Source: Heptranchias perlo (taxonomy: Eukaryota). From it: 64,000 nt of DNA. The stretch is from contig NC_090351.1 in NCBI RefSeq assembly GCF_035084215.1, positions 14,818,001-14,882,000 of the forward strand, given 5' to 3'. The position numbers and the translations under genes were made by a program. Shown here piece after piece: positions 16,086 through 61,323 of this stretch (the first letter of the stretch is position 1; each line of letters begins with the position of its first letter). The notes below the pieces were generated by a model. The model had not been told where the DNA came from, made no database searches, and saw nothing but the letters and a program-made list of their open reading frames with translations.

Positions 16086-16662
16086 AGTAAAGAAATAGAA
16101 AAGAAAAATTTCATAATAATGAGGTGTGATATTGGTTTACAGCAAGAAAACAAGAGAAAACTAGGGAACTTTGCAAACTGAAGGACTTTTACGGTCCGCT
16201 GAATCACTTAAAGCGGAAATTGGCAATTTCAAATGCTTTGAAAGTGATGATCTGAATTCATGACAGTAATACTGAAGTGTGGCATGTAATTAAAGTCTTC
16301 TAGTTTATATCCCAGCCAAGAGGTGCAGATCATTCTGAACATAATTTGTTTTGTAGTGCGGTCTGAAAGGAGTCACTGCTGAGCTGCAGTTGTTGGTCTG
16401 TTTGTGTCAGGGGATCTGGGACTCAGAACTTGTGTATTAAATAATTCATTGAGAAATTATCTCAGTGCAGACAAGATGAAACAAACTTCTGGCATTTACT
16501 CTAGGAATTCTTGATAATTTAAAATAAGGATTGAAGACATGTTCTGAGAAAGACATCACTGGAATGGGCAATGCACTCAACAAGGGCCCGATCGTGCCTA
16601 TCCAGCAAATTGTTGATGAGCACTTTAATCGTAGAGCAAATTGAATTTCTCGATCCAACATT

Positions 16663-17428
16663 ATAAGAACATAAGAAATAGGAGCAGGAGTAGGACATAT
16701 GGCCCCTCGAGCCTATTCAATAAGATCATGGCTGATCTTCTACTTTCCAGACGTATCCCCAAATCCCTTGATTCCCTTAGTGTTCAAAAATCTCTCAATG
16801 TCAATCTTGAATATACTCAACGACTGAGCATCCACAGCCCTATGGGGTAGAGAATTCCAAAGATTCACAATTCTCTGAGTGAAGAAATTTTTCCTCATCT
16901 CAGTCCTAAATGGCCAACCCCTTATCTTGAGATTATGACCCCTAGTTCTAGATTCTCCAGCCAGGGGCAACAGCCTCTCAGCATCAACACTGTCAAGCCC
17001 TCTAAGAATTTTATATGTTTCAGTGAGATCACCTCTCATTCTTCTAATCTCCAGAGAATATAGGCCCATTCTACTCAATCTCTCCTCATAAGACAACCCT
17101 CTCATCCCAGGAATCAATCCAGGAAGCGGCACCCCACTAGTTACAACCTGCCAACCCGAAAATGACCCGTTTATTCCTACTGTCTGTTTTCTGTCGGTTA
17201 ACCAATCCTCAATCCATGCTAATATATTATCCCCAACCCCATGAACCTTAATCTTTACTAACAACCTTTTGTGTGGCAACTTATCAAATGCCTTTTGAAA
17301 ATCCAAATATACTACATCCACTGGTTCCCTCTTATTTACCCTGTTAGTTACATCCTCAAAAAACTCTAATAGATTTGACAAACACAATTTCTCTTTCATA
17401 AAACCATGTTGACTCTGCCTAACCGTAT
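16663..17428 (-). mobile_element. CR1 LINE 3' part with internal deletion; continues at 21242
   Basis: ORF 16740 RT motifs with fused junction VTSGVPL/PGLIPGMRG; tail ATAAGAACATAAGAAATAGGAGCAGG. Confidence 0.93.
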
Positions 17429-18388
17429 CGGGCCAGAACTTTTTTTTTATTCGTTCACGGGATGTGGGCGTCGCTGGCGAGGCCAGCATTTATTGCCCAT
17501 CCCTAATTGCCCTCGAGAAGGTGGTGGTGAGCCGCCTTCTTGAACCGCTGCAGTCCGTGTGGTGACGGTTCTCCCACAGTGCTATTAGGAAGGGAGTTCC
17601 AGGATTTTGACCCAGCGACAATGAAGGAACGGCGATATATTTCCAAGTCAGGATGGTGTGTGACTTGGAGGGGAACGTGCAGGTGTTGTTGTTCCCATGT
17701 GCCTGCTGCTCTTGTCCTTCTAGGTGGTAGAGGTCGCGGGTTTGGGAGGTGCTGTCGAAGAAGCCTTGGCGAGTTGCTGCAGTGCATCCTGTGGATTGTA
17801 CACACTGCAGCCACAGTGCGCCGGTGGTGAAGGGAGTGAATGTTTAGGGTGGTGGATGGGGTGCCAATCAAGCGGGCTGCTTTATCTCGGATGGTGTCGA
17901 GCTTCTTGAGTGTTGTTGTAGCTGCATTCATCCAGGCAAGTGGAGAGTATTCCATCACACTCCTGACTTGTGCCTTGTAGATGGTGGAAAGGCTTTGGGG
18001 AGTCAGGAGGTGAGTCACTCGCCACAGAATACCCAGCCCCTGACCTGCTCTCGTAGCCACAGTATTTATATGGCTGGTCCAGTTAAGTTTCTGGTCGATG
18101 GTGACCCCCAGGATGTTGATGGTGGGGGATTCGGCGATGGTAATGCCGTTGAATGTCAAGGGGAGGTGGTTAGACTCTCTCTTGTTGGAGATGGTCATTG
18201 CCTGGCATTTATCTGGCGTGAATGTTACTTGCCACTTATGAGCCCAAGCCTGGATGTTGTCCAGGTCTTGCTGCATGCGGGCTCGGACTGCTTCATTATT
18301 TGAGATGTGGAGATGCCGGTGATGGACTGGGGTTGACAATTGTAAACAATTTTACAACACCAAGTTATAGTCCAGCAATTTTATTTTA

Positions 18389-18432
18389 AATTCACAAGCT
18401 TTCGGAGATTTTCTCCTTCCTCAGGCAAATGT
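18389..18432 (-). ncRNA. Minimal type I hammerhead ribozyme (left arm copy)
   Basis: Mirror copy of 19737-19780. Confidence 0.8.
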
Positions 18433-18680
18433 TTCAAGATCTCCTTGAAGCCTACGCATTTATACATATTGAACAATAATACACGGTGTTTACAGACTGC
18501 CCCTGCAACTGCCCGTTGCCAAGGCAATCACCGTGTTCAGACAGAGAGGTGTTACCTGCAGAACCTCCGAATACACATTCAACAAAAAAACAAACAGGGA
18601 AAAAAAACAGAGAAAAAAAAAACACAGAGAGAGGCAGAAACATCCGGAAGGCAGAGAGAGCCAGCAAATGACCCATTATA

Positions 18681-19083
18681 TTAAAAACAGATAACATTTG
18701 TTCGCTGGTGGGGTAACGTGTAGCGTGACATGAACCCAAGATCCCGGTTGAGGCCGTCCTCATGGGTGCGGAACTTGGCTATCAATTTCTGCTCGACGAT
18801 TTTGCGTTGTCGTGTGTCTCGAAGGCCGCCTTGGAGTACGCTTACCCGAAGGTCGGTGGATGAATGTCCATGACTGCTGAAGTGTTCCCCGACTGGGAGG
18901 GAACCCTCCTGTTTGGCGATTGTTGCGCGGTGTCCGTTCATCCGTTGTCGCAGCGTCTGCATGGTCTCGCCAATGTACCATGCTCTGGGGCATCCTTTCC
19001 TGCAACGTATGAGGTAGACAACGTTGGCTGAGTCACAGGAGTATGAACCATGCACCTGGTGGGTGGTGTCATCTCGTGTGATG
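18681..19083 (-). pseudogene. Penelope-like GIY-YIG endonuclease domain fragment (left arm)
   Basis: SYSCDSANVVYLIRC...YIGETMQTLRQRMNGH...EQKLI...GLN; RT domain absent. Confidence 0.9.
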
Positions 19084-19085
19084 GT

Positions 19086-19488
19086 CATCACACGAGATGA
19101 CACCACCCACCAGGTGCATGGTTCATACTCCTGTGACTCAGCCAACGTTGTCTACCTCATACGTTGCAGGAAAGGATGCCCCAGAGCATGGTACATTGGC
19201 GAGACCATGCAGACGCTGCGACAACGGATGAACGGACACCGCGCAACAATCGCCAAACAGGAGGGTTCCCTCCCAGTCGGGGAACACTTCAGCAGTCATG
19301 GACATTCATCCACCGACCTTCGGGTAAGCGTACTCCAAGGCGGCCTTCGAGACACACGACAACGCAAAATCGTCGAGCAGAAATTGATAGCCAAGTTCCG
19401 CACCCATGAGGACGGCCTCAACCGGGATCTTGGGTTCATGTCACGCTACACGTTACCCCACCAGCGAACAAATGTTATCTGTTTTTAA
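19086..19488 (+). pseudogene. Penelope-like GIY-YIG endonuclease domain fragment (right arm)
   Basis: Identical translation to the left arm; open to the stop at 19488. Confidence 0.9.
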
Positions 19489-19736
19489 TATAATGGGTCA
19501 TTTGCTGGCTCTCTCTGCCTTCCGGATGTTTCTGCCTCTCTCTGTGTTTTTTTTTTCTCTGTTTTTTTTCCCTGTTTGTTTTTTTGTTGAATGTGTATTC
19601 GGAGGTTCTGCAGGTAACACCTCTCTGTCTGAACACGGTGATTGCCTTGGCAACGGGCAGTTGCAGGGGCAGTCTGTAAACACCGTGTATTATTGTTCAA
19701 TATGTATAAATGCGTAGGCTTCAAGGAGATCTTGAA

Positions 19737-19780
19737 ACATTTGCCTGAGGAAGGAGAAAATCTCCGAAAGCTTGTGAATT
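19737..19780 (+). ncRNA. Minimal type I hammerhead ribozyme (right arm copy)
   Basis: Core CTGAGGA (19745-51), stem II GGAGA-aaa-TCTCC, GAAA (19766-69), palindromic AAGCTT stem III, stem I ATTTGC/GTGAAT with two G-U pairs; AATAAA follows at 19784. Confidence 0.8.
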
Positions 19781-19797
19781 TAAAATAAAATCATTAT

Positions 19798-20474
19798 TTG
19801 AGGGGTTGCGAATGGAACTGAACACTGAGCAGTCATCAGCGAACATCCCCATTTCTGACCTTATGATGGAGGGAAGGTCATTGATGAAGCAGCTGAAGAT
19901 GGTTGGGCCTAGGACACTGCCCTGAGGAACTCCTGCAGCAATGTCCTGGGCCTGAGATGATTGGCCTCCTGATTCCCATTTACTTCAATTTTTCTAGGGC
20001 TCCTTGGTGCCACACTCGGTCAAATGCTGCCTCGATGTCAAGGGCAGTCACTCTCACCTCACCTCTGGAATTGAGCTCTTTTGTCCATGTTTGGACCAAG
20101 GCTGTAATGAGGTCTGGAGCCGAGTGGTCCTGGCGGAAGCCAAACTGAGCATCGGTGAGCAGGTTATTGGTGAGTAAGTGCCGCTTGATAGCACTTGTGG
20201 CACCAAGGAGCCCTAGTAAAATTGAAGTCAATGGGAATCAGGGGGAAAACTCTCCAGTGGCTGGAGTCATACCTAGCACAAAGGAAGATTGTAGTGGTTG
20301 TTGGAGGCCAATCATCTCAGGCCCAGGACATTGCTGCAGGAGTTCCCCAGGGCAGTGTCCTAGGCCCAACCATCTTCAGCTGCTTCATCAATGACCTTCC
20401 CTCCATCATAAGGTCAGAAATGGGGATGTTCGCTGATGACTGCTCAGTGTTCAGTTCCATTCGCAACCCCTCAA
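19798..20474. repeat. Inverted duplication at the LINE 5' end (arms 19798-20014 and 20196-20474, 181-nt loop)
   Basis: Arms are reverse complements with about 3 mismatches; left arm lacks 62 nt present at 20241-20302. Confidence 0.93.
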
Positions 20475-21241
20475 CTTGTGCAGAGCGGTGTGACAACGCT
20501 CGCCGCAGCTCCTGCAAATTAGATTAATGAATGTACTTACTGCGGGCTTTGTGGCGTCGAATTGCCTGATTTTGAACTTTTAAAAATTTGTACGCTATCA
20601 ACCCAGCCTCTGAGCAGCGTAAGTTGACGCGCATGGAACGGTCTGTGAGAAAAGAAGACACGCCCACAAAATCTGTCAGGAAGAGAAGTAATGCCCACAA
20701 GCAGACAAGCAGACTTCATTCATTTAAAGTTAGTATTCTGGAAGTCATTGGAAATAAAAATGTTAAATTCTTTTAATAAAAAGCCAAATAAATATTTGAA
20801 TTAAATTAAAGAGACAGAAAGAAAAGTAAAAAAATATTAATTTCTAAATTTAAAAAAAAAAATTTATTGACCAAAAACCATTAAAATAAGGAGTATTATG
20901 AGATTCCACATTTTTTAAATTTAATTTTTAGTTGTTTGGCAGTCATTAACACTAACTTAAAACTTAGTTTAGAGTTGGTATTTTTAAATGTAGCTCTTTG
21001 GTGGCGTAATTAGTTACTTTTCAGCTGGGTGGATGAGCAAGTTTGTGAGATTTCAATGATTACAGTGTGTGATGGCCCTTTAATTCGAAGCTGTCAAATT
21101 GCCGGTGAATCAATAAAAGCAAGTTCATGATTTCCTCATTTTAGTGCACATTTGCAAACTCAGGAACTTGCTGCTTCGATTCTCCATTAAAAACGGAGAG
21201 CACTGTTGAGCTCTCCGTTATTTTGGGAGCAAGTTCTGCCT

Positions 21242-22310
21242 TATTATGATTTTCTAAGTGCCCTGTTACTACGTCTTTAATAATGGATTCTAGCATTTTT
21301 CCTACTACTGATGTCAGGCTAACTGGCCTTTAGTTCCCTGTTTCTCCCTTCTTTCTTGAATAGTGGGGTTACATTTGCTACCGTCCAATCCATGAGAACC
21401 GTTCTAGAATCTCGGGAATTCTGGAAAATCAAAACCAATGCATCCACTATCTCTGCAGCCACCTCTTTTAAAACCCTAGGATGTCGGCCATCAGTCCAGA
21501 GAATTTGTCGGCTTTTAGTCCCATTAATTTCTCCAGTACTTGTTCTTTACTAATCTTAATTACTTTAAGTTCCTCACTCTCATTAGACCTTTGGTTTCCC
21601 ATTATTTCCGATATGATTTTTGTGTCTTCTACTGTGAAGACAGATACAAAATATTTGTTTAACAGCTCTGCCATTTCCTTATTCCCCATTATAATTTCTC
21701 CTGCCTCTGCCTCTAGGGGACCCACGTTTACTTTCGCTACTCTCTTCCTTTTTACGTACTTGTAGAAGCTCTTACAATCTGTTCTTATATTTCTTGCTAG
21801 TTTATTCTCATATTCAATTTTTTCCCTCTCAATCGATTTCTTGGTCATCCTTTGCTGATTTCTAGAACCCTCCCAATCCGCAGGCCTACTACTCTTTTTG
21901 GCAACAATGGAAGCCTCTTCTTTTAATCTAGTACTATCCTTAACTTCTCTAGTTAACCATGATTGGATCACTTTTCCTGTAGAGTTTTTATTCCTCAAGG
22001 GAATGTATATTTGTTGAGAATCATGAATTATTTCTTTAAATCTTTGCCATTGCTTATCTACCGTCATATCTTTTAATCTAATTTCCCAATCTACCTTAGC
22101 CAACTCATTCCTCATAATTACGTGATTGGCTTTGTTTAAATTTAAGACCCTCGTTTTGGACTTAACTATATCACTCTCAAACTCAATATGAAATTCTATC
22201 ATATTATGATCACTCTTCCCTCAGAGGATCCTTAACTATACGATTATTAATTAACCCTGTCTCATTACACAATACTGAATCTAAAATAGCCTGTTCCTTA
22301 GTTGGTTCTC
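21242..22310 (-). mobile_element. CR1 LINE, 5' continuation of 16663-17428
   Basis: ORF 21468 (KSFYKYV, LNKYFVSVFT); highly similar to the CR1 at 50030-50840. Confidence 0.93.
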
Positions 22311-24841: not shown

Positions 24842-26316
24842 GTCATAGAGTCATAGAGTTATACAGCACGGATAGAGGCCCTTCGGCCCATCGTGTCCAC
24901 GCCGGCCATCAAGCCCTGTCTACTCTAATCCCATATTCCAGCATTTGGTCCGTAGCCTTGTATGCTATGGCATTTCAAGTGCTCATCCAAATGCTTCTTG
25001 AATGTTGTGAGGGTTCCTGCCTCCACAACCCTTTCAGGCAGTGAGTTCCAGACTCCAACCACCCTCTGGGTGAAAAAGTTCTTTCTCAAATCCCCTCTAA
25101 ACCTCCCACCTTTTACCTTGAATCTATGTCCCCTTGTTATAGAACCCTCAACGAAGGGAAAAAGCTCCTTAGTATCCATCCTATCTGTGCCCCTCATAAT
25201 TTTGTACACCTCAATCATGTCCCCCCTCAGCCTCCTCTGCTCCAAGGAAAACAAACCCAATCTTCCCAGTCTCTCTTCATAGCTGAAGCGCTCCAGCCCT
25301 GGTAACATCCTGGTGAATCTCCTCTGCACCCTCTCCAAAGCGATCACATCCTTCCTGTAGTGTGGCGACCAGAACTGCACACAGTACTCCAGCTGTGGCC
25401 TAACCAGTGTTTTATACAGCTCCATCATAACCTCCTTGCTCTTATATTCTATGCCTCGGCTAATAAAGGCAAGTATCCCATATGCCTTCTTTACCACCTT
25501 ATCTACCTGTTCCGCCGCCTTCAGGGATCTGTGAACTTGCACACCAAGATCCCTCTGACCCTCTGTCTTGCCTAGGGTCCTCCCATTCATTGTGTATTCC
25601 CTTGCCTTGTTAGTCCCTCCAAAGTGCATCACCTCGCACTTTTCCGGGTTAAATTCCATTTGCCACTGTTCCGCCCATCTGACCAACCCATCTATATCGT
25701 CCTGCAGACTGAGGCTATCCTCCTCGCTATTTACCACCCTACCAATTTTTGTATCATCAGCGAACTTACTGATCATACCTTTTACATTCATATCCAAGTC
25801 ATTAATGTAGACCACAAACAGCAAGGGACCCAGCACCGATCCCTGTGGTACCCCACTGGCCACAGGTTTCCAGTCACAAAAACAACCTTCGACCATCACC
25901 CTCTGCCTTCTGCCACTAAGCCAGTTTTGTATCCAAAGTGCCAAGGCACCCTGGATTCCATGGGCTCGTACCTTCTTGACCAGTCTCCTGTGGGGGACTT
26001 TATCGAAGGCCTTACTGAAATCCATGTATACCACATCCACTGCGTTACCCTCATCCACACGCCTAGTCATCCCCTCAAAAAATTCAATCAAATTAGTCAG
26101 ACATGATCTTCCCTTGACAAAGCCATGTTGACTATCCCTGATTAATCCTTGCTTCTCCAAGTGGAGACTAATTTTGTCCTTCAGAATTTTTTCCAATAAT
26201 TTTTCTACCACTGATGTTAGGCTCACTGGCCTGTAGTTCCCCGGTTTTTCCCTACTCCCCTTCTTGAATAATGGTACTACATTAGCGGTTCTCCAGTCCT
26301 CTGGCACATCCCCTGT
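24842..26316 (-). mobile_element. Young CR1 LINE, 5'-truncated
   Basis: Uninterrupted ORF, CpGs retained, 3' octamer repeats (TCATAGAG)2. Confidence 0.97.
24925..26307 (-). CDS. CR1 ORF2 reverse transcriptase and C-terminal domain (460 aa, open but 5'-truncated)
   Basis: [52 protein letters not shown]. Confidence 0.9.
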   Translation of the reverse strand: MPEDWRTANVVPLFKKGSREKPGNYRPVSLTSVVEKLLEKILKDKISLHLEKQGLIRDSQHGFVKGRSCLTNLIEFFEGMTRRVDEGNAVDVVYMDFSKAFDKVPHRRLVKKVRAHGIQGALALWIQNWLSGRRQRVMVEGCFCDWKPVASGVPQGSVLGPLLFVVYINDLDMNVKGMISKFADDTKIGRVVNSEEDSLSLQDDIDGLVRWAEQWQMEFNPEKCEVMHFGGTNKAREYTMNGRTLGKTEGQRDLGVQVHRSLKAAEQVDKVVKKAYGILAFISRGIEYKSKEVMMELYKTLVRPQLEYCVQFWSPHYRKDVIALERVQRRFTRMLPGLERFSYEERLGRLGLFSLEQRRLRGDMIEVYKIMRGTDRMDTKELFPFVEGSITRGHRFKVKGGRFRGDLRKNFFTQRVVGVWNSLPERVVEAGTLTTFKKHLDEHLKCHSIQGYGPNAGIWD

Positions 26317-26360
26317 GGGATGTGCCAGAGGACTGGAGAACCGCTAATGTAGTACCATTA
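26269..26360. repeat. Perfect 44-bp inverted repeat, 4-nt loop, at the CR1 5' junction
   Basis: 26269-26312 is the reverse complement of 26317-26360; loop CTGT. Confidence 0.97.
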
Positions 26361-28129
26361 GGGTCAGAGGGATCTTGGTGTGCAAATTCAAGTGGGAAAG
26401 AAAAATATTGGACACATGTACTCCATGAATGATGTTGAAATAGCTAAGGATAAAGCTGAGAGACACCTGAGTCTTAGTGGACTTGACCCTCAACATCTCC
26501 ATTTTCTAAATGGATTTTTAATCATAAATGCCCCTCTCAACATCATCTCTTCGCCCCTCTTAGCATTGATAGCTCTGATGTAATTAGAAGTTATATTTAA
26601 TTCTTGACTCTGTTACAGGATCCTGCTTGAGAAGAACTTGGATACGATAAGTCCATTTATAGTGATAAGATGCTAAAATCACAGTTCTCTAACTACATTA
26701 TTAAATTATATTGCATTCATGCTATAATAGATGGACTGGGAAGGACGATTTACTCAGCTATACTCCACCTAAGGAGAGCTTATTGAGATGCATCAGAACA
26801 GTAACAGAGAGGACAGATTGTACTAGTGCTGGGAGAACTACTATTCACTGTTCATTGATGTAACATCTCAGTATAGCAGCTATTTCAGAGGTGTGTGCTG
26901 CCTGTGCTAATGGAAACTTAAGTATTGTCCACTGTGCTCCTGGTGTTACCACAAGTGTGATTGTAACTATTTTTGCAGCATTTTACAGCACAAATGCAAT
27001 TTTCCAAAATGCATTTGACTGAAAATTGAGATGATAAAGCTTGAGGCACATAAAAAAGGAGTGAGTAAAGATGAACAGCATGTGATGCCGATATTTCCAA
27101 GCTGAGCTTCCTTCAGATTTTATTACGCTTCATGTCCAAAGGAGGTTTCCCGAATTACTTTCATCCTGGCCAAAGTTCACCTTTACAGATCACATTTTTT
27201 ATGAAGTTGAAATTTTTTTTTTGTTTTTGCAGGAGCTGGTACTGAATTATTGTTTTCTCAACTGAGTGTAAAATTGCATTGGTCAGTTAAACTCAAATGT
27301 GTCGTTACTGGTAAGATGTAATCGAATGTGTCTGAGCCAATAAAGTGATCTAGTAGGCAATAAAGAAATTTTAATTGCGGTTATCTTGTCCAAACCATCA
27401 CCATTAAATTTTAATTCAGATCACAGAAGTCTCACCTACTATGCCTTACCTTGGATTTCATCATCAATCTTTCTGCAATTATTGACATTCTCCTCTGACC
27501 TTAAACAGAACTCCACTGGCAAAGCTGCCTCTAACAAGCTTGGTTTCGTTGCTGCCAAACATTTTGATAAGTCTTAACTCAGTGTCGAAGACTTAAATCT
27601 TGCTCGTCTGTAGGGAATGCTCATCCAACAGCTTTCTTATATTCATGGACAGGACTCAAGGAAAAGTACATCATCTGACAGGCAATTCTTCTCTCACCTC
27701 TGGCCTCCAAATCCCCTCTTTCTCCATCGCAAGCTTTCTTGTCTCTCTTTTTCTATTGATATTACCATGTTAATTGGTCCTCTGAACATTTCTTCCTTTC
27801 CCTCCCAAGCTGCAGATAACCCATCCTACACTCCTTGCAATCTTGACTATGTTGAAAGTCCTGAAGTCTCCTGTTCTAAATAAGTTTTTTTTCCTAACAA
27901 CTCAAAACTGGTCCTTATCTCTCTGTGCCCCTCCCTCCTACAATTTATAAGATTTTAAATCCAAGCTTGACATCACTTAACCATTACTTTTTGGTTTACC
28001 TTATCTTCTACCTTACTCTTGTTGGTGTCCTACATGTTGGGCTTTATGCCCTCGACCGAGGTTTAGCAAAAGCAAAAAACATTTTAGCTCCTTTTACGGA
28101 AAATCCTGCAATCTAATTCGGTGCCCAAA

Positions 28130-31696: not shown

Positions 31697-32880
31697 CATG
31701 GCCAAGATTTTGACCCAGAGCCGAGAAGAGGGCGGGAGGGGAAGGGTCGAATCATGGACAGGAAACCCGGAAGTACGAGTTTTCCGGACTTACTTACGAT
31801 TTTCACATAAGGACGTCTTTTTTTTTGTCGGTTTGCCGTCTGACTGGCCGGCCTGATTGACAGGCTGGCCTCAGTCGGACGGGAGCAGAGCAAGGAAGAG
31901 GATGAGAAAAGGTAAGTCTTCAGGTAAGACTTTGATTGTATAGATGGGGGGGTGGGGGGTCATGGGTGGGCATGGGATCATGGGGGGAGTCAGTCATTGG
32001 GGTGGGTGGGGAGGTTAGTCACCGGGGGAGTCAGTTATTGGGGGGGGAGGTCAGTCAATGGGGGAGTCAGCCATTGGGGGGGGAGAATCGGGTGTCAATC
32101 ATTGGAGGGTCAGTCACCAATGGAGTGAGAGTGGGGGTAGGGGGTCATCGCGGGGGTCAGCAATCATCGTGGGGGGGGTCTGTCGTCATTGGGGGAGGGT
32201 CCGCAATCGATTGTGGGGGGTGGTGGTTATGATCGTTGTGGGGGGGATCCCGATCGTTGGGGGGGGTTGTTGCGATCGTTGGGGAGGAGGGTCACGATCG
32301 TTGGGGGGGTTGTTGCGATCGTTGGGGAGGAGGGTCACGATCATTGGGGGGGTTGTTGCAATCGTTGGGGAGGAAGGTCACGATCATTGGGGGGGTTGTT
32401 GCAATCGTTGGGGAGGAGGGTCACGATCGTTGGGGGGGTTGTTGCAATTGTTGGGGAGGAAGGTCACGATCGTTGGGGGGGTTGTTGCAATCGTTGGGGA
32501 GGAAGGTCACGATCATTGGGGGGGTTGTTGCAATCGTTGGGGAGGAGGGTCACGATCGTTGGGGGGGTTGTTGCAGGTAGGCTTGTTGGGCCTGGGGGAA
32601 GCACTCCTGCTCCTCCAAGCTTACAAGCTGTGCCAGAAAGGCACTTACCTGCAATTTCGAGCCTTCTTGCCTCCTCTCGTGTGGCGTGAAGGGGAAGTCC
32701 CGGGAATCCTGGCCTCCAGAGGCTAAAATCACAAAACCTTTCAAAGTGGAGGCCCACAGCCTCCTTGAAAGGTTTTAATGACCAACCTGCCTCTTGAGAA
32801 CGGGTTGGTCGCCCACCCCTCGTCCCATCCCGGTGAAAACTGGAAATGGGCGTGTTGGGGGCGGGTCTGAAATTGTTGCA
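31697..32880. mobile_element. Harbinger-type non-autonomous element containing a G-rich minisatellite, right end truncated
   Basis: Begins GGCCAAGATTTTGACC; GGAAACCCGGA motif shared with the Harbinger left end near 41858; CpG-rich. Confidence 0.55.
32252..32576. repeat. 43-bp G-rich minisatellite, about 7.5 copies
   Basis: Unit GATCRTTGGGGGGGTTGTTGCRATCGTTGGGGAGGARGGTCAC. Confidence 0.95.
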
Positions 32881-44088: not shown

Positions 44089-45283
44089 CTATGAGAATCT
44101 ATCAAATATGAGTGACTCCCTGGCATGACGAACAGCCAGGTGAGATGCTGCTCTACCAATGGTTCGCCCATCTTCATCCTCCTCGTCATCTTCTTCAATG
44201 TTGATGGTAGATGCGGCTGCTTCTGGAGCACATGGGACCTCATCCACTGGTAACCCTCTCTATTGAGCGATGTTAAGCAGGAGGCAACACACGACTATTA
44301 ATCTACACACCTTCACCGGTTCATACTGAAGGGCTCCTCCAGATTGATCCAGGCACCAGAAGTTCATCTTCAGCATTCCTATGGCTTGCTCTATGACGGA
44401 GCTGGTGTTGCTGTGACCATTGTTGTACTGTTGCAGTGCTTTGCTGGAGGGGTTCCTCACAGATGTCATGAGCCATGTCTGCATGGGGTATCACTTGTCT
44501 TCAAGGAGCCAGCCCTTAAGTGTGTCTTGTACGTGGGAGAGGGTCAGGATGTTGGATTCGCACAGAATGAAGGAATCATGACAGCTGCCTGGGAATTTGG
44601 CACACGCCTGCAGAAACCTCTTCCAGTGGTTGCAAACCAGCTGCGCGTTGATGGAGTGATATCCTTTTCTGTTGATGAACATTCCTGGCTCATGTGGAGG
44701 TGCTCGGCTTGCTATGTGTATGCAATCAATTATGCCCTGTACCTGTGGGAAGCCAGTCAGAGAGTGGAAACCCACTGTCCTCTCAGTCTGACTGATGTCG
44801 TCGATGGGGAAGTTGACGTAGTCGGATGCCCTGGCAAACCAGTCACCGTGACCTGTCGTATACACTTATGTGCGGACAACTGAGAGATCCTGGTGATGTC
44901 ACTGGTGGCGCCCTGGAAGGATCCGGAGGCGAAGAAGTTGAGGGCATTGGTGACTTTAATTGCGACGGGCAATGCATGACCACCAGGCCCAGTCGGGAGC
45001 AGCTCTGCATGAAGGAGCCTGCAGATGTTTGCGACCATCTGGCCACTCAATCTTAGCCTTTGTAGGCACTGCTCCTCAGAGAGATCCAGAAAGCTCAGCC
45101 TCTGCCTGCCGACCCTCTCATGAGGGTAGTGCCTCCTGCGACGTCGGGCCCTCCGTTGTTCCCCTCCCTGCTCTTCTGCAGGTCCCTGTAGCGCACCTGC
45201 CTTGTGGAGCTGCAACTCCCATAACTGCACACCCTGCATCCTCCTCAGATGTAGTGTTGAATACATCCATTGCTTCCCCCCAT
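44089..45283 (-). pseudogene. Harbinger DDE transposase (HARBI1-family), stops and frameshifts
   Basis: ALNFFASGSFQ, GFPQVQGIIDCIHI, NRKGYHSINAQLVC, PGSCHDSFI, GWLLEDK, VIEQAIGMLK. Confidence 0.92.
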
Positions 45284-54867: not shown

Positions 54868-55512
54868 AATAACCACCACCACCACAATCACCAATTTATA
54901 TGGCACCTTTAATGTAGAAACATTTCCCAAGGTGCTTCACAGAGGTGTAAGGGATAAAATGAGTGCAGTGCCAAAGAAGGAGATATTAGGAGGGATGCCT
55001 AAAAAGTTGGTCTAAGTGGTGGGTTTTACGGAGAGTCTTAAAGGAGGATGAGAAAGAGATGGAGAGGCGGAGAGATTTAGGGAGGGAATTTCAGAGTGTG
55101 GGGCCCAGGCAGCTGGAGATCTGGCTGCCAAAGGAGGGCCGAAGGGAGAGGGGAATGGATAAGATGCAGAAGTTATAGGAACGGAGAAGTCAGGAGGAGT
55201 TGTAGGACTGAAGGACATTACAGAGATGGGGAGGGCAAGGCTATGAATGGATTTCAACACAAGGATGAAAAATTTAAATTTGAGAGAGCAAGAGCCAGTG
55301 TAGGTCAGCAAGGAAAGGGGTGATGGGTGAATGGGACTTGGTGCCGGATAGAATACAGATAGCAGAGTTTTAGATGAGCTGAAGGTTATGAAAGGTGGAG
55401 AATGGGAGGTGGCAAGGAAAGCATTGAAGGTAGCAAAGGCATGGATGAGGGTTTCAGTGGAAGATGGGCTGAGGCAGGGGTGGAGGTGGAGGCGGGTGAT
55501 GTTACAGAGGTG
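54868..55512 (-). mobile_element. L2 LINE 3' region
   Basis: FKFFILVLKSIHSLA motif; tail TTTATATGGCACCTTTAATGTAG with (CAC)n. Confidence 0.85.
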
Positions 55513-59819: not shown

Positions 59820-60990
59820 CCTGATTTTCCTTTTGTTATTTATGTGTCTGTAGAATATTTTAGTATTTCCTTTTATATTCTTTGATCATTGAATGGTGTA
59901 GTTTCTCTTTGCCTTTCTAATTGTTTTTCTTGAGTTCTTTCCTAACCTCTTTGTATTCCCTTTTGTCATCCTTTCCATTATTGCCCATGTACTTAGTGCA
60001 TGCCTTTCTCTTTAGTTTCAATTTTTCCCTTATCTCTTTACTCATTCATGGTGTTTCATTATTGGCTACTTTGTTCTTGTTTTTTAGCGGAATATATTTC
60101 TCCTGAACTCTATTGATAACCTTTTAAAATATTTCCCACTGCTGTTCTATCTCTTTGTTTGCCAATATTATTTTCCAGTTTGCCTTCCTTCATTCCATTT
60201 TCATCCCCTCAAAATTAACTTTTTTCTAATCTATTAATTTGGCCTTTGTCTCCCTTGTCTTTCTCAATCATTATCTTAAACCTCATTATGTTGTGATCGT
60301 TATTGCCTAGATGTTCCCCTAGTGCTTACTGTTTCTACCTGCTCTGGTTCATTTTCCAGATTTGCCTACATATTTCTTCTTCCACTTCCCTTCCACTACT
60401 AGGTGGTCTGTAGAATACCCCTATTAGCATGATTGATCCCGTCTTATCCTTTATCTCAAGCCATATGGATTCTGTTTCTATCGTAATGTTAGATATGTCC
60501 CTTTTTTCTACTGCCATTATGTTTTCTCTAATTAGTACAGCTACCTCACCCCTCTCTTCATTCCCTATCCTTTCTAAATATGTCATAAGTCTTATCCACA
60601 CCTCTATTTATCTTTTCTGCCAGGATTCTGTTCCCATTCTGGTTCAGGTGGAGCCCGTCCCATCGGTATAGCTCCCTTCAGTCCCAGTAAGTGCCAGTGT
60701 CCCATGCAATAGAACCCCTCATTCTCACACCACTCTTTCAGCCACGCATTCACCTTCCTGATCTGACCATCTCTGTGTGAATTAGTGCATGGCTTGAGTC
60801 GTAATCCTGAGATTACTACTGATGGGGTCCTGCTTTTTAATTTAGTTCGTAGCTTCTGATACTCCGTGAGCAGGACTGCCTCCCTATTCTTCTCTATGTC
60901 ACTGGTCCTGACATGGACCATGGCAAATGGATCTTCCCTCTCCCTTTCCATGTTCCTTTCTAGTTGTTCTGCGATACCCTTTACCCTGGC
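59820..60990 (-). mobile_element. CR1 5' region: ORF1 SGNH-esterase-like fragment and ORF2 APE endonuclease fragment
   Basis: ORF 60604 VHVRTSDI...VVISGL...VNAWLKEWC..EGF...HW; ORF 60335 ESIWLEI...IGVFYRPP. Confidence 0.85.
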
Positions 60991-61323
60991 ACCATTATTC
61001 CATGGCAGGGTCTGATTCCACCATTATTCCATGGCAGGTTCTGATTCCACCATTATTCCATGGCAGGGTCTGTTTCCACCATTATTCCATGGCAGGGTCT
61101 GTTTCCACCATTATTCTATGGCAGGTTCTGATTCCACCATTATTCCATGGCAGGGTCTGATTCCACCATTATTCCATGGCAGGGTCTGTTTCCACCATTA
61201 TTCCATGGCAGGGTCTGTTTCCACCATTATTCTATGGCAGGTTCTGATTCCACCATTATTCCATGGCAGGGTCTGATTCCACCATTATTCCACGGCAGGG
61301 TCTGATTCCACCATTATTCCACC
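60990..61323. repeat. 29-bp minisatellite, about 11.5 copies, with 116-bp higher-order duplication
   Basis: Unit CACCATTATTCYATGGCAGGKTCTGWTTC; variant pattern of units 3-6 repeats as units 7-10. Confidence 0.95.

Follow-up and report, generated by a model that had tools for sequence, protein, structure and literature searches.

A 5'-truncated Penelope-like element forming a perfect 706-bp palindrome in a shark LINE, probably through cDNA snap-back during insertion

In this study, we asked how a retroelement copy could come to consist of two perfectly mirrored arms with two nucleotides between them, and whether such a structure does anything for its host. The locus lies in a 64-kb stretch of shark DNA, the whole of which (64,000 nt) is called the window here. 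Our answer, which we consider probable, is that a 5'-truncated copy of an abundant shark Penelope-like element (PLE) became a perfect 706-bp palindrome within a LINE because its cDNA snapped back on itself during insertion.

Anatomy of the palindrome and its insertion site

Self-comparison of the window showed two arms, 18378-19083 and 19086-19791, that are 706 nt each and are separated by the 2-nt loop GT. An earlier note on this DNA had described mirrored arms and a loop of these sizes, 73 extra nucleotides on the left arm only and a 12-bp target-site duplication; all were borne out, the extra nucleotides being 18305-18377 and the duplication a direct repeat at 18293-18304 and 19791-19802, and the identity of the arms, now measured, was 0 differences in 706 positions. 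Base 19791 serves both as the last base of the right arm and as the first base of the right target duplication, and since it belongs to the duplication, the element itself is 18305-19790 and the element-derived part of its right arm 705 nt. In the loop, both bases still follow the family sequence of the left copy, so that this tail-bearing copy measures 781 nt and the inverted copy 705 nt. The features are as follows.

17440..20195, minus strand: host LINE (RT fragment with RVT_1 matches, A-rich 3' end), split by the element
18293..18304, no strand: left copy of the 12-bp target-site duplication, 9/12 bases A/T (direct-repeat comparison, contigs)
18305..18377, minus strand: 73-nt tail, present at one end only, its outer end a recurring family end (self-comparison, contig ends)
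18378..19083, minus strand: left arm, with the 3' untranslated end (pLTR region) and GIY-YIG core; putative primary cDNA
18380..18385, minus strand: mirror AATAAA
18390..18430, minus strand: mirror hammerhead motif
18681..19088, minus strand: mirror frame of the 135-codon GIY-YIG core, its ATG likewise from the junction
19081..19488, plus strand: 135-codon frame with GIY-YIG core, without RT and without CX2-5CxxC linker; ATG created by the fold-back junction
19084..19085, no strand: 2-nt loop, the final two family-matching bases of the left copy (contig loose ends)
19086..19790, plus strand: right arm, an exact inverted copy that ends 73 nt before the tail end and shares 1 base with the target
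19739..19779, plus strand: minimal type I hammerhead motif with CUU triplet (pattern and fold)
19784..19789, plus strand: AATAAA
19791..19802, no strand: right copy of the target-site duplication (direct-repeat comparison)
20196..20474, plus strand: inverted copy of host LINE 19798-20014, with a 181-nt loop (self-comparison)

The next longest perfect inverted repeat in the window with a loop of up to 60 nt has 44-nt arms, which excludes chance as the origin of arms of 706 nt, and the palindrome is confirmed at the level of the assembled sequence. Self-comparison found no other copy of the element in the 64-kb window, and no direct repeat of it there; a pLTR is defined by a partial tandem copy. 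A MITE or foldback DNA transposon was rejected since the two ends are not symmetric, one running 73 nt beyond the other, and the arms consist of coding and 3' sequence from a retroelement. A microRNA precursor was also dismissed, the Rfam matches at the hairpin centre being shape matches that all fall under their gathering scores (best 41.6 versus 62 bits).

The insertion site was examined through the LINE frame and through an overlay of contigs from four runs of one sample (X1, X3, X5 and X7) on window positions 18220-19115, which comprise one arm plus 30 nt of the other. With the empty site rejoined, the LINE frame contains a single stop over 324 codons, versus 12 and 14 in the other frames, and contigs running from 18304 directly into the sequence at 19803 numbered 84 in X1 and 68 in X3, the two DNA runs, although other LINE copies yield identical empty-site contigs. 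As the LINE frame is open and contigs pass across the empty site, the target duplication is real. The duplication is AT-rich (9/12) within a LINE of 53% GC. This is consistent with the preference for ATT-rich cleavage of the anole PLE enzyme, for which reverse transcription starts define the tail (PMC11167929, in part; sources so marked are cited from the portion of their text that was available).

The host LINE belongs to a nest of four levels at 16662-22069, in which a CR1-like repeat contains a MITE-like insert, the insert the LINE, and the LINE the PLE. The LINE appears to sit in the left end of the MITE-like insert (about 17429-17439 and 20475-21241, with similar ends), and the flanks of the CR1-like repeat around that insert rejoin at 86% over 670 nt to another copy in the window. 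Dating of the LINE by protein search gave 1 match, at 78%, among 359 candidates. The LINE carries an inverted repeat of its own, whose copies differ by 3 substitutions in 217 aligned nt and by a 62-nt deletion in the one at 19798-20014. Two of the substitutions lie within 25 nt of the deletion, and the undeleted copy keeps an open frame. Among the joints listed, contigs link LINE positions 18238, 18259 and 18261 to the element's tail end; the overlay suggests that other family members have inserted into other copies of the same LINE. Elsewhere in the window were a hairpin at 2079-2279 (95-nt arms, 95% complementary, 11-nt loop) beside a repeat common to 55019-55118, short tandem arrays at 32166-32575 and 60990-61321 by self-comparison, and, at 44263-44865, two minus-strand frames separated by a frameshift that match DDE_Tnp_4, which we take to be a Harbinger-type transposase family.

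A perfect palindrome of this length could, in principle, be a product of assembly or polishing, the true locus being one-armed, longer-centred or imperfect and fold-back reads or consensus having made it perfect. Long palindromes do trouble sequencing (PMC4057610, in part), and the centre junction was absent from the contigs listed in the four runs of the one sample (15 of 46 joints and 32 of 91,741 pieces; short backward joints of unstated kind were not counted as fold-backs). In addition, the neighboring LINE inverted repeat has 3 differences in 217 positions versus 0 in 706 here (Fisher P = 0.013). However, a fold-back read would be mirrored along its full length; here the mirroring ends after 706 nt, one side alone has a tail, and the flanks are unlike each other, carry the 12-bp duplication and rejoin into one reading frame. 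We therefore regard an artefact as most unlikely. The unmirrored flanks and their rejoining into one LINE frame also count in favor of insertion by snap-back.

Family identity and age of the copy

The arms carry the final 133 codons of a GIY-YIG endonuclease. The GIY-YIG motif, with cysteines between GIY and YIG, is present in the fragment and lies C-terminal to the RT in its relatives. At 21 bits, the Pfam GIY-YIG match falls under the cut-off of 22.6; the fragment is nevertheless real, as the earlier note had claimed, by its 93% match over 121 aa to the RT+EN protein P0001. A second match, at 70%, is to P0011, and both proteins have RVT_1 upstream, so that the Penelope-like origin proposed in that note also stands. 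A search among longer proteins gave 49 matches among 85 candidates, shark gene models first, several of which have RT ahead of the nuclease, and protein entries of Heptranchias perlo match the nuclease fragment at 93–99%. An inverted 5'-truncated copy, a one-sided tail and a target duplication, which mark EN+ PLE insertions, are present here, as is a hammerhead motif near the 3' end.

The relatives also indicate the type of element. A CX2-5CxxC linker is given for Neptune and Nematis and not for Penelope/Poseidon (PMC8557442, in part). It was found in 24 of the 31 relatives that have enough sequence upstream of the nuclease core, and in contigs the family continues beyond 19085 into the linker region, the truncated copy itself being without it. 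By these sequence matches, the element is the 3' terminal part of a shark PLE family of high abundance, and relatives of that family have the Neptune-type linker. A Poseidon-type label was ruled out by the linker in the relatives, as the Penelope/Poseidon clade lacks it.

Lacking RT, the copy cannot move on its own. The ATG created by the junction sits at the tip of the hairpin, in frame on both strands, and we assign it no role; a translated stand-alone nuclease was rejected given that the ATG lies inside the stem, the linker is missing and no promoter is known. Shark gene models named XRCC5, FAM204A, septin 5a and a cytochrome P450 (P0003, P0043, P0010 and P0020) hold an endonuclease exon of the family, and the C-terminus of P0003 and P0043 is that of the window copy. 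Such exons may be real captures or annotation errors.

The family is very abundant, with 56,242 X1 contigs on the 896 nt of the overlay. Position 18304 is a recurring family end at which 62 contigs in X1, 52 in X3 and 11 in X5 stop, with diverse flanks (consensus agreement 0.4–0.47). Among 31 variable positions listed, seven show another letter in most of the X1 summed depth (52–90%), and both arms carry the copy's own letter at those seven minority positions. Since the arms share these letters, both derive from one template and the copy belongs to a sub-lineage, an argument that is approximate because the depth of contigs does not equal copy number; the comparison omitted the A-rich stretch 18596-18638. 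None of the 31 positions listed was a private substitution, that is, none showed nearly 100% of another letter in the two DNA runs. This lack supports youth independently of conversion between the arms. The divergence of the arms, 0/706, has a 95% upper bound of 0.42%, and together these two results agree with the very recent insertion claimed earlier.

Formation of the palindrome

The reading that we prefer runs as follows. The element's endonuclease would nick each strand of an AT-rich site, with the two nicks offset by 12 nt, and reverse transcription from the tail end would proceed for 781 nt and halt inside the endonuclease gene. The free 3' end of the cDNA would then turn back, without templated microhomology, and copy 705 nt of its own strand. 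Copying would halt 73 nt before the start, the far target end would be joined through 1 shared base, and second-strand synthesis would open the hairpin into a palindrome. The earlier note's own suggestion, a fold-back inside the endonuclease gene followed by copying back through the 3' end, gains support. That the turn was made without templated microhomology follows from the family sequence continuing past 19085 as loose ends (31 contigs in X1, 13 in X3 and 5 in X7) and from the first base of the right arm not being that of the family. The lack of natural microhomology at the exact junction counts against snap-back; a 3-bp match lies 3 nt beyond, where the family sequence folds weakly and in another register (−1.2 kcal/mol). 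So does the tail, which at 73 nt exceeds the published 30–40 nt.

A different route to the same architecture is that two separately primed cDNAs, one per nick and started at different sites on the RNA (with and without the tail), grew together and were end-joined. Cleavage and extension of both strands have been described for the anole enzyme, with two internal start sites that define the tail (PMC11167929, in part); this route would account directly for the one-sided tail, and requires no microhomology at the centre. However, it requires two independent truncations 2 nt apart in an RNA of roughly 3 kb, and 18378 is absent among the best-supported loose ends listed, which include 18304. In addition, LINEs in the window have the same small-loop fold-backs without such a tail system. 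We therefore think two cDNAs quite unlikely and favor snap-back, because truncation points offset by 2 nt would be expected from it and should be rare for two independent cDNAs. Palindromes at the junctions of rotifer PLE units have likewise been read as self-priming, for which the template is argued to be an antisense strand and not the cDNA (PMC3846280). The present sequence does not discriminate between these two versions of self-priming.

Fold-backs at 5' ends were found in three different retroelements of the window, the PLE, the host LINE and a CR1-like LINE. The last (about 24843-26390) has perfect 44-nt arms at 26269-26312 and 26317-26360 with a 4-nt loop between them; next comes an inverted 31-nt segment derived from 25532-25562, and a 5-nt target duplication is likely. 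The CR1-like copies of the window are just 68–79% alike, and their alignments stop before the fold-back loop. As two LINEs in the same 64 kb end in fold-backs, the snap-back may be the work of host repair rather than of the element's RT. Host control of LINE 5' joining has been described in fish (PMC4245944, in part), and self-annealed inverted duplications at L1 insertion or cut sites (10.1101/2024.12.14.628481, in part). A metagenome scan returned 3 loci from 127 candidates, none of the window family. At both of the close loci (51–52% identity) there is an inverted repeat at the 5' end, its spacer 224 nt long in one and 873 nt in the other. In one of them, L001, the repeat stands head-to-head inside the ORF; the third, distant locus had no 5' inverted repeat.

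The position of the host LINE's inverted repeat raises the possibility that the two structures are linked through site choice, a reading compatible with snap-back. The inverted LINE copy reaches 5 nt into the 12-nt target duplication and ends just 7 nt away from the palindrome's foot, for which the naive chance is 12 in 1527 positions (0.8%), and inverted duplications have been described at the cut sites of L1 insertions (10.1101/2024.12.14.628481, in part). In one version, the nuclease would have cut at the foot of an older LINE inverted repeat; in another, the inverted LINE copy would have been made later or together with the palindrome and have stopped where the palindrome's hairpin blocked the polymerase. 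However, this is a single case, spotted post hoc, and a shared preference of the two events for AT-rich spots, of which there are seven clusters, would raise the chance to about 1 in 7. The inverted copy lies between 7-nt direct repeats (20193-20199 and 20474-20480) and begins at the LINE's own 5' junction, which points to an older event at the time of LINE insertion, as does the greater divergence of the LINE arms than of the palindrome arms. Both nicks lie to one side of the stem, whereas a junction resolvase would cut across it. Finally, passage of the hairpin through RNA would be expected to leave editing differences between the arms, and none are present. A link is thus doubtful; chance, or cutting at the foot of an existing repeat, is favored over a stalled polymerase because the LINE repeat looks older (P = 0.013).

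A broader proposal, which we hold to be improbable, is that PLE GIY-YIG nucleases select sites by DNA structure and cut at the feet of inverted repeats already present, while host snap-back turns the 5' ends of PLEs and LINEs into hairpins, so that palindromes seed palindromes. If true, shark genomes would keep making clustered, fresh, long perfect palindromes, a standing source of fragile sites and of dsRNA against the source families.

Hairpin RNA and comparison with known systems

The earlier note had placed a ribozyme on both strands and proposed that read-through transcription makes the locus a self-terminating siRNA source. The former is present as a minimal hammerhead motif, with a stem I of 6 bp, a stem II of 5 bp, an extra base before stem II and a short self-complementary stem III region; cleavage is predicted after 19773. 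Across the window, no hammerhead core match other than the motif and its mirror has a stem II, and Rfam reported no hammerhead family at E ≤ 5. A non-LTR retrozyme, which has at least two hammerheads per strand in tandem direct units (10.64898/2026.07.22.740005, in part), was excluded, there being one motif per strand.

As to a hairpin-RNA locus, read-through from either flank would give a 705-bp dsRNA from which small RNAs targeting the family are diced, and the ribozyme or AATAAA would terminate the transcript. The RNA of the entire element is predicted to fold as one stem of about −1490 kcal/mol on either strand, so dsRNA is possible if the locus is transcribed, the long complementary arms forming that predicted stem on both strands. 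The gene models P0003 and P0043, from a shark relative, end in family sequence, which indicates that host transcripts can enter the family, and Penelope copies of a rotifer yield antisense small RNAs (PMC3846280). However, all 11 hammerhead pairs had a probability of 0.0 in the plus-strand read-through RNA, and in the minimum-energy structure of the full transcript every base of the motif and of AATAAA is paired, which predicts a ribozyme trapped within the hairpin. Taken out of the hairpin, the motif forms stem II with a probability of 0.56–0.74 and stem I with one of just 0.05–0.06. A single minimal PLE hammerhead showed no detectable cleavage in vitro, the minimal kind being built for dimers (PMC4209133, in part), and the anole PLE hammerhead requires protein and is dispensable for insertion in vitro (PMC11167929, in part). 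With the motif paired in the stem, stem I weak by itself and single minimal hammerheads uncut, termination by the ribozyme is unlikely. The notion of a self-terminating siRNA source is accordingly unsupported, there being one minimal motif per strand, its pairs at 0.0 and AATAAA paired. No host-gene Pfam match was obtained for 262 of the 270 non-repeat window frames of at least 55 codons, a search that short exons would escape, and the insertion is brand-new, without sign of selection. Family contigs in X5 and X7, which are RNA runs by guess only, are not assignable to the window copy. We consider a hairpin-RNA locus very unlikely; most likely, the palindromic copy has no function.

What the copy does provide is a clean, unmutated footprint of the end of a PLE insertion, in which target, start, stop and turn-around are readable to the base. 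Published accounts of how inverted ends originate include self-priming (PMC3846280) and two start sites (PMC11167929, in part). One copy cannot settle the mechanism, but the abundance of the family makes a census of loop lengths and arm ends a direct test of the models, and the occurrence of 5' fold-backs in three retroelements of different kinds within 64 kb suggests that the cDNA may be turned by the host instead of the element. Long palindromes with short spacers stall replication forks (PMC7999016, in part), and by analogy the palindromic copy is expected to be unstable in replication and short-lived. A young natural palindrome of 706 bp would also offer a way to measure the germ-line decay rate of such structures. 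A literature search covering mainly papers outside subscription yielded no census of palindromic PLE copies in sharks, nor any primary study of PLE hairpins as a source of siRNAs; figures or supplements might show longer palindromes.

The L1 systems with inverted duplications (10.1101/2024.12.14.628481, in part) and twin priming (PMC12016303, in part) resemble the locus in their inversion of the 5' end at a target-primed insertion, their small hairpin and their little microhomology. They differ from it in that the inverted pieces of twin priming overlap by about 12 nt, whereas here the mirror is full, and in that L1 duplications copy host DNA, whereas here the cDNA itself would have been copied.

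The hammerheads are like those of metazoan PLEs (PMC4209133, in part) in being minimal type I motifs with an extra base before stem II, a G-C pair at the base of stem II and a self-complementary stem III region. Opposite-strand hammerhead pairs 100–700 bp apart are reported from Schistosoma in the same source; in the window, about 1.3 kb separates the two motifs, and a perfectly complementary arm covers each.

The closest counterparts are the insertion units of EN+ PLEs, for which an adjacent inverted 5'-truncated copy and a one-sided tail are typical (PMC8557442, in part). The locus shares with them the 5' truncation, the head-to-head arrangement with an inverted 5'-truncated copy, the palindrome at the junction, the tail on one end, a short target duplication and insertion into another retrotransposon (PMC3846280; PMC8557442, in part). 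Compared with the published units, its tail is longer (73 versus 30–40 nt), as is its target duplication (12 bp versus 8–10 bp in the rotifer; PMC3846280). With regard to Neptune-type PLEs (PMC8557442, in part), the window copy is truncated downstream of the linker, and its target is an AT-rich 12-mer in a LINE rather than a (TA)n repeat. The earlier note had implied an unusual architecture, which holds for its degree and not for its kind, since palindromes at junctions (PMC3846280) and hammerheads on opposite strands (PMC4209133, in part) were already published. In the rotifer units, the palindromes stated with a length measure 18 and 38 bp (PMC3846280), whereas here both copies are truncated no more than 2 nt apart, giving one palindrome of 706 bp. 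The element is likely to be a dead and very young copy that takes a known architecture to its extreme, its novelty one of degree, in that the whole insertion is one perfect palindrome.
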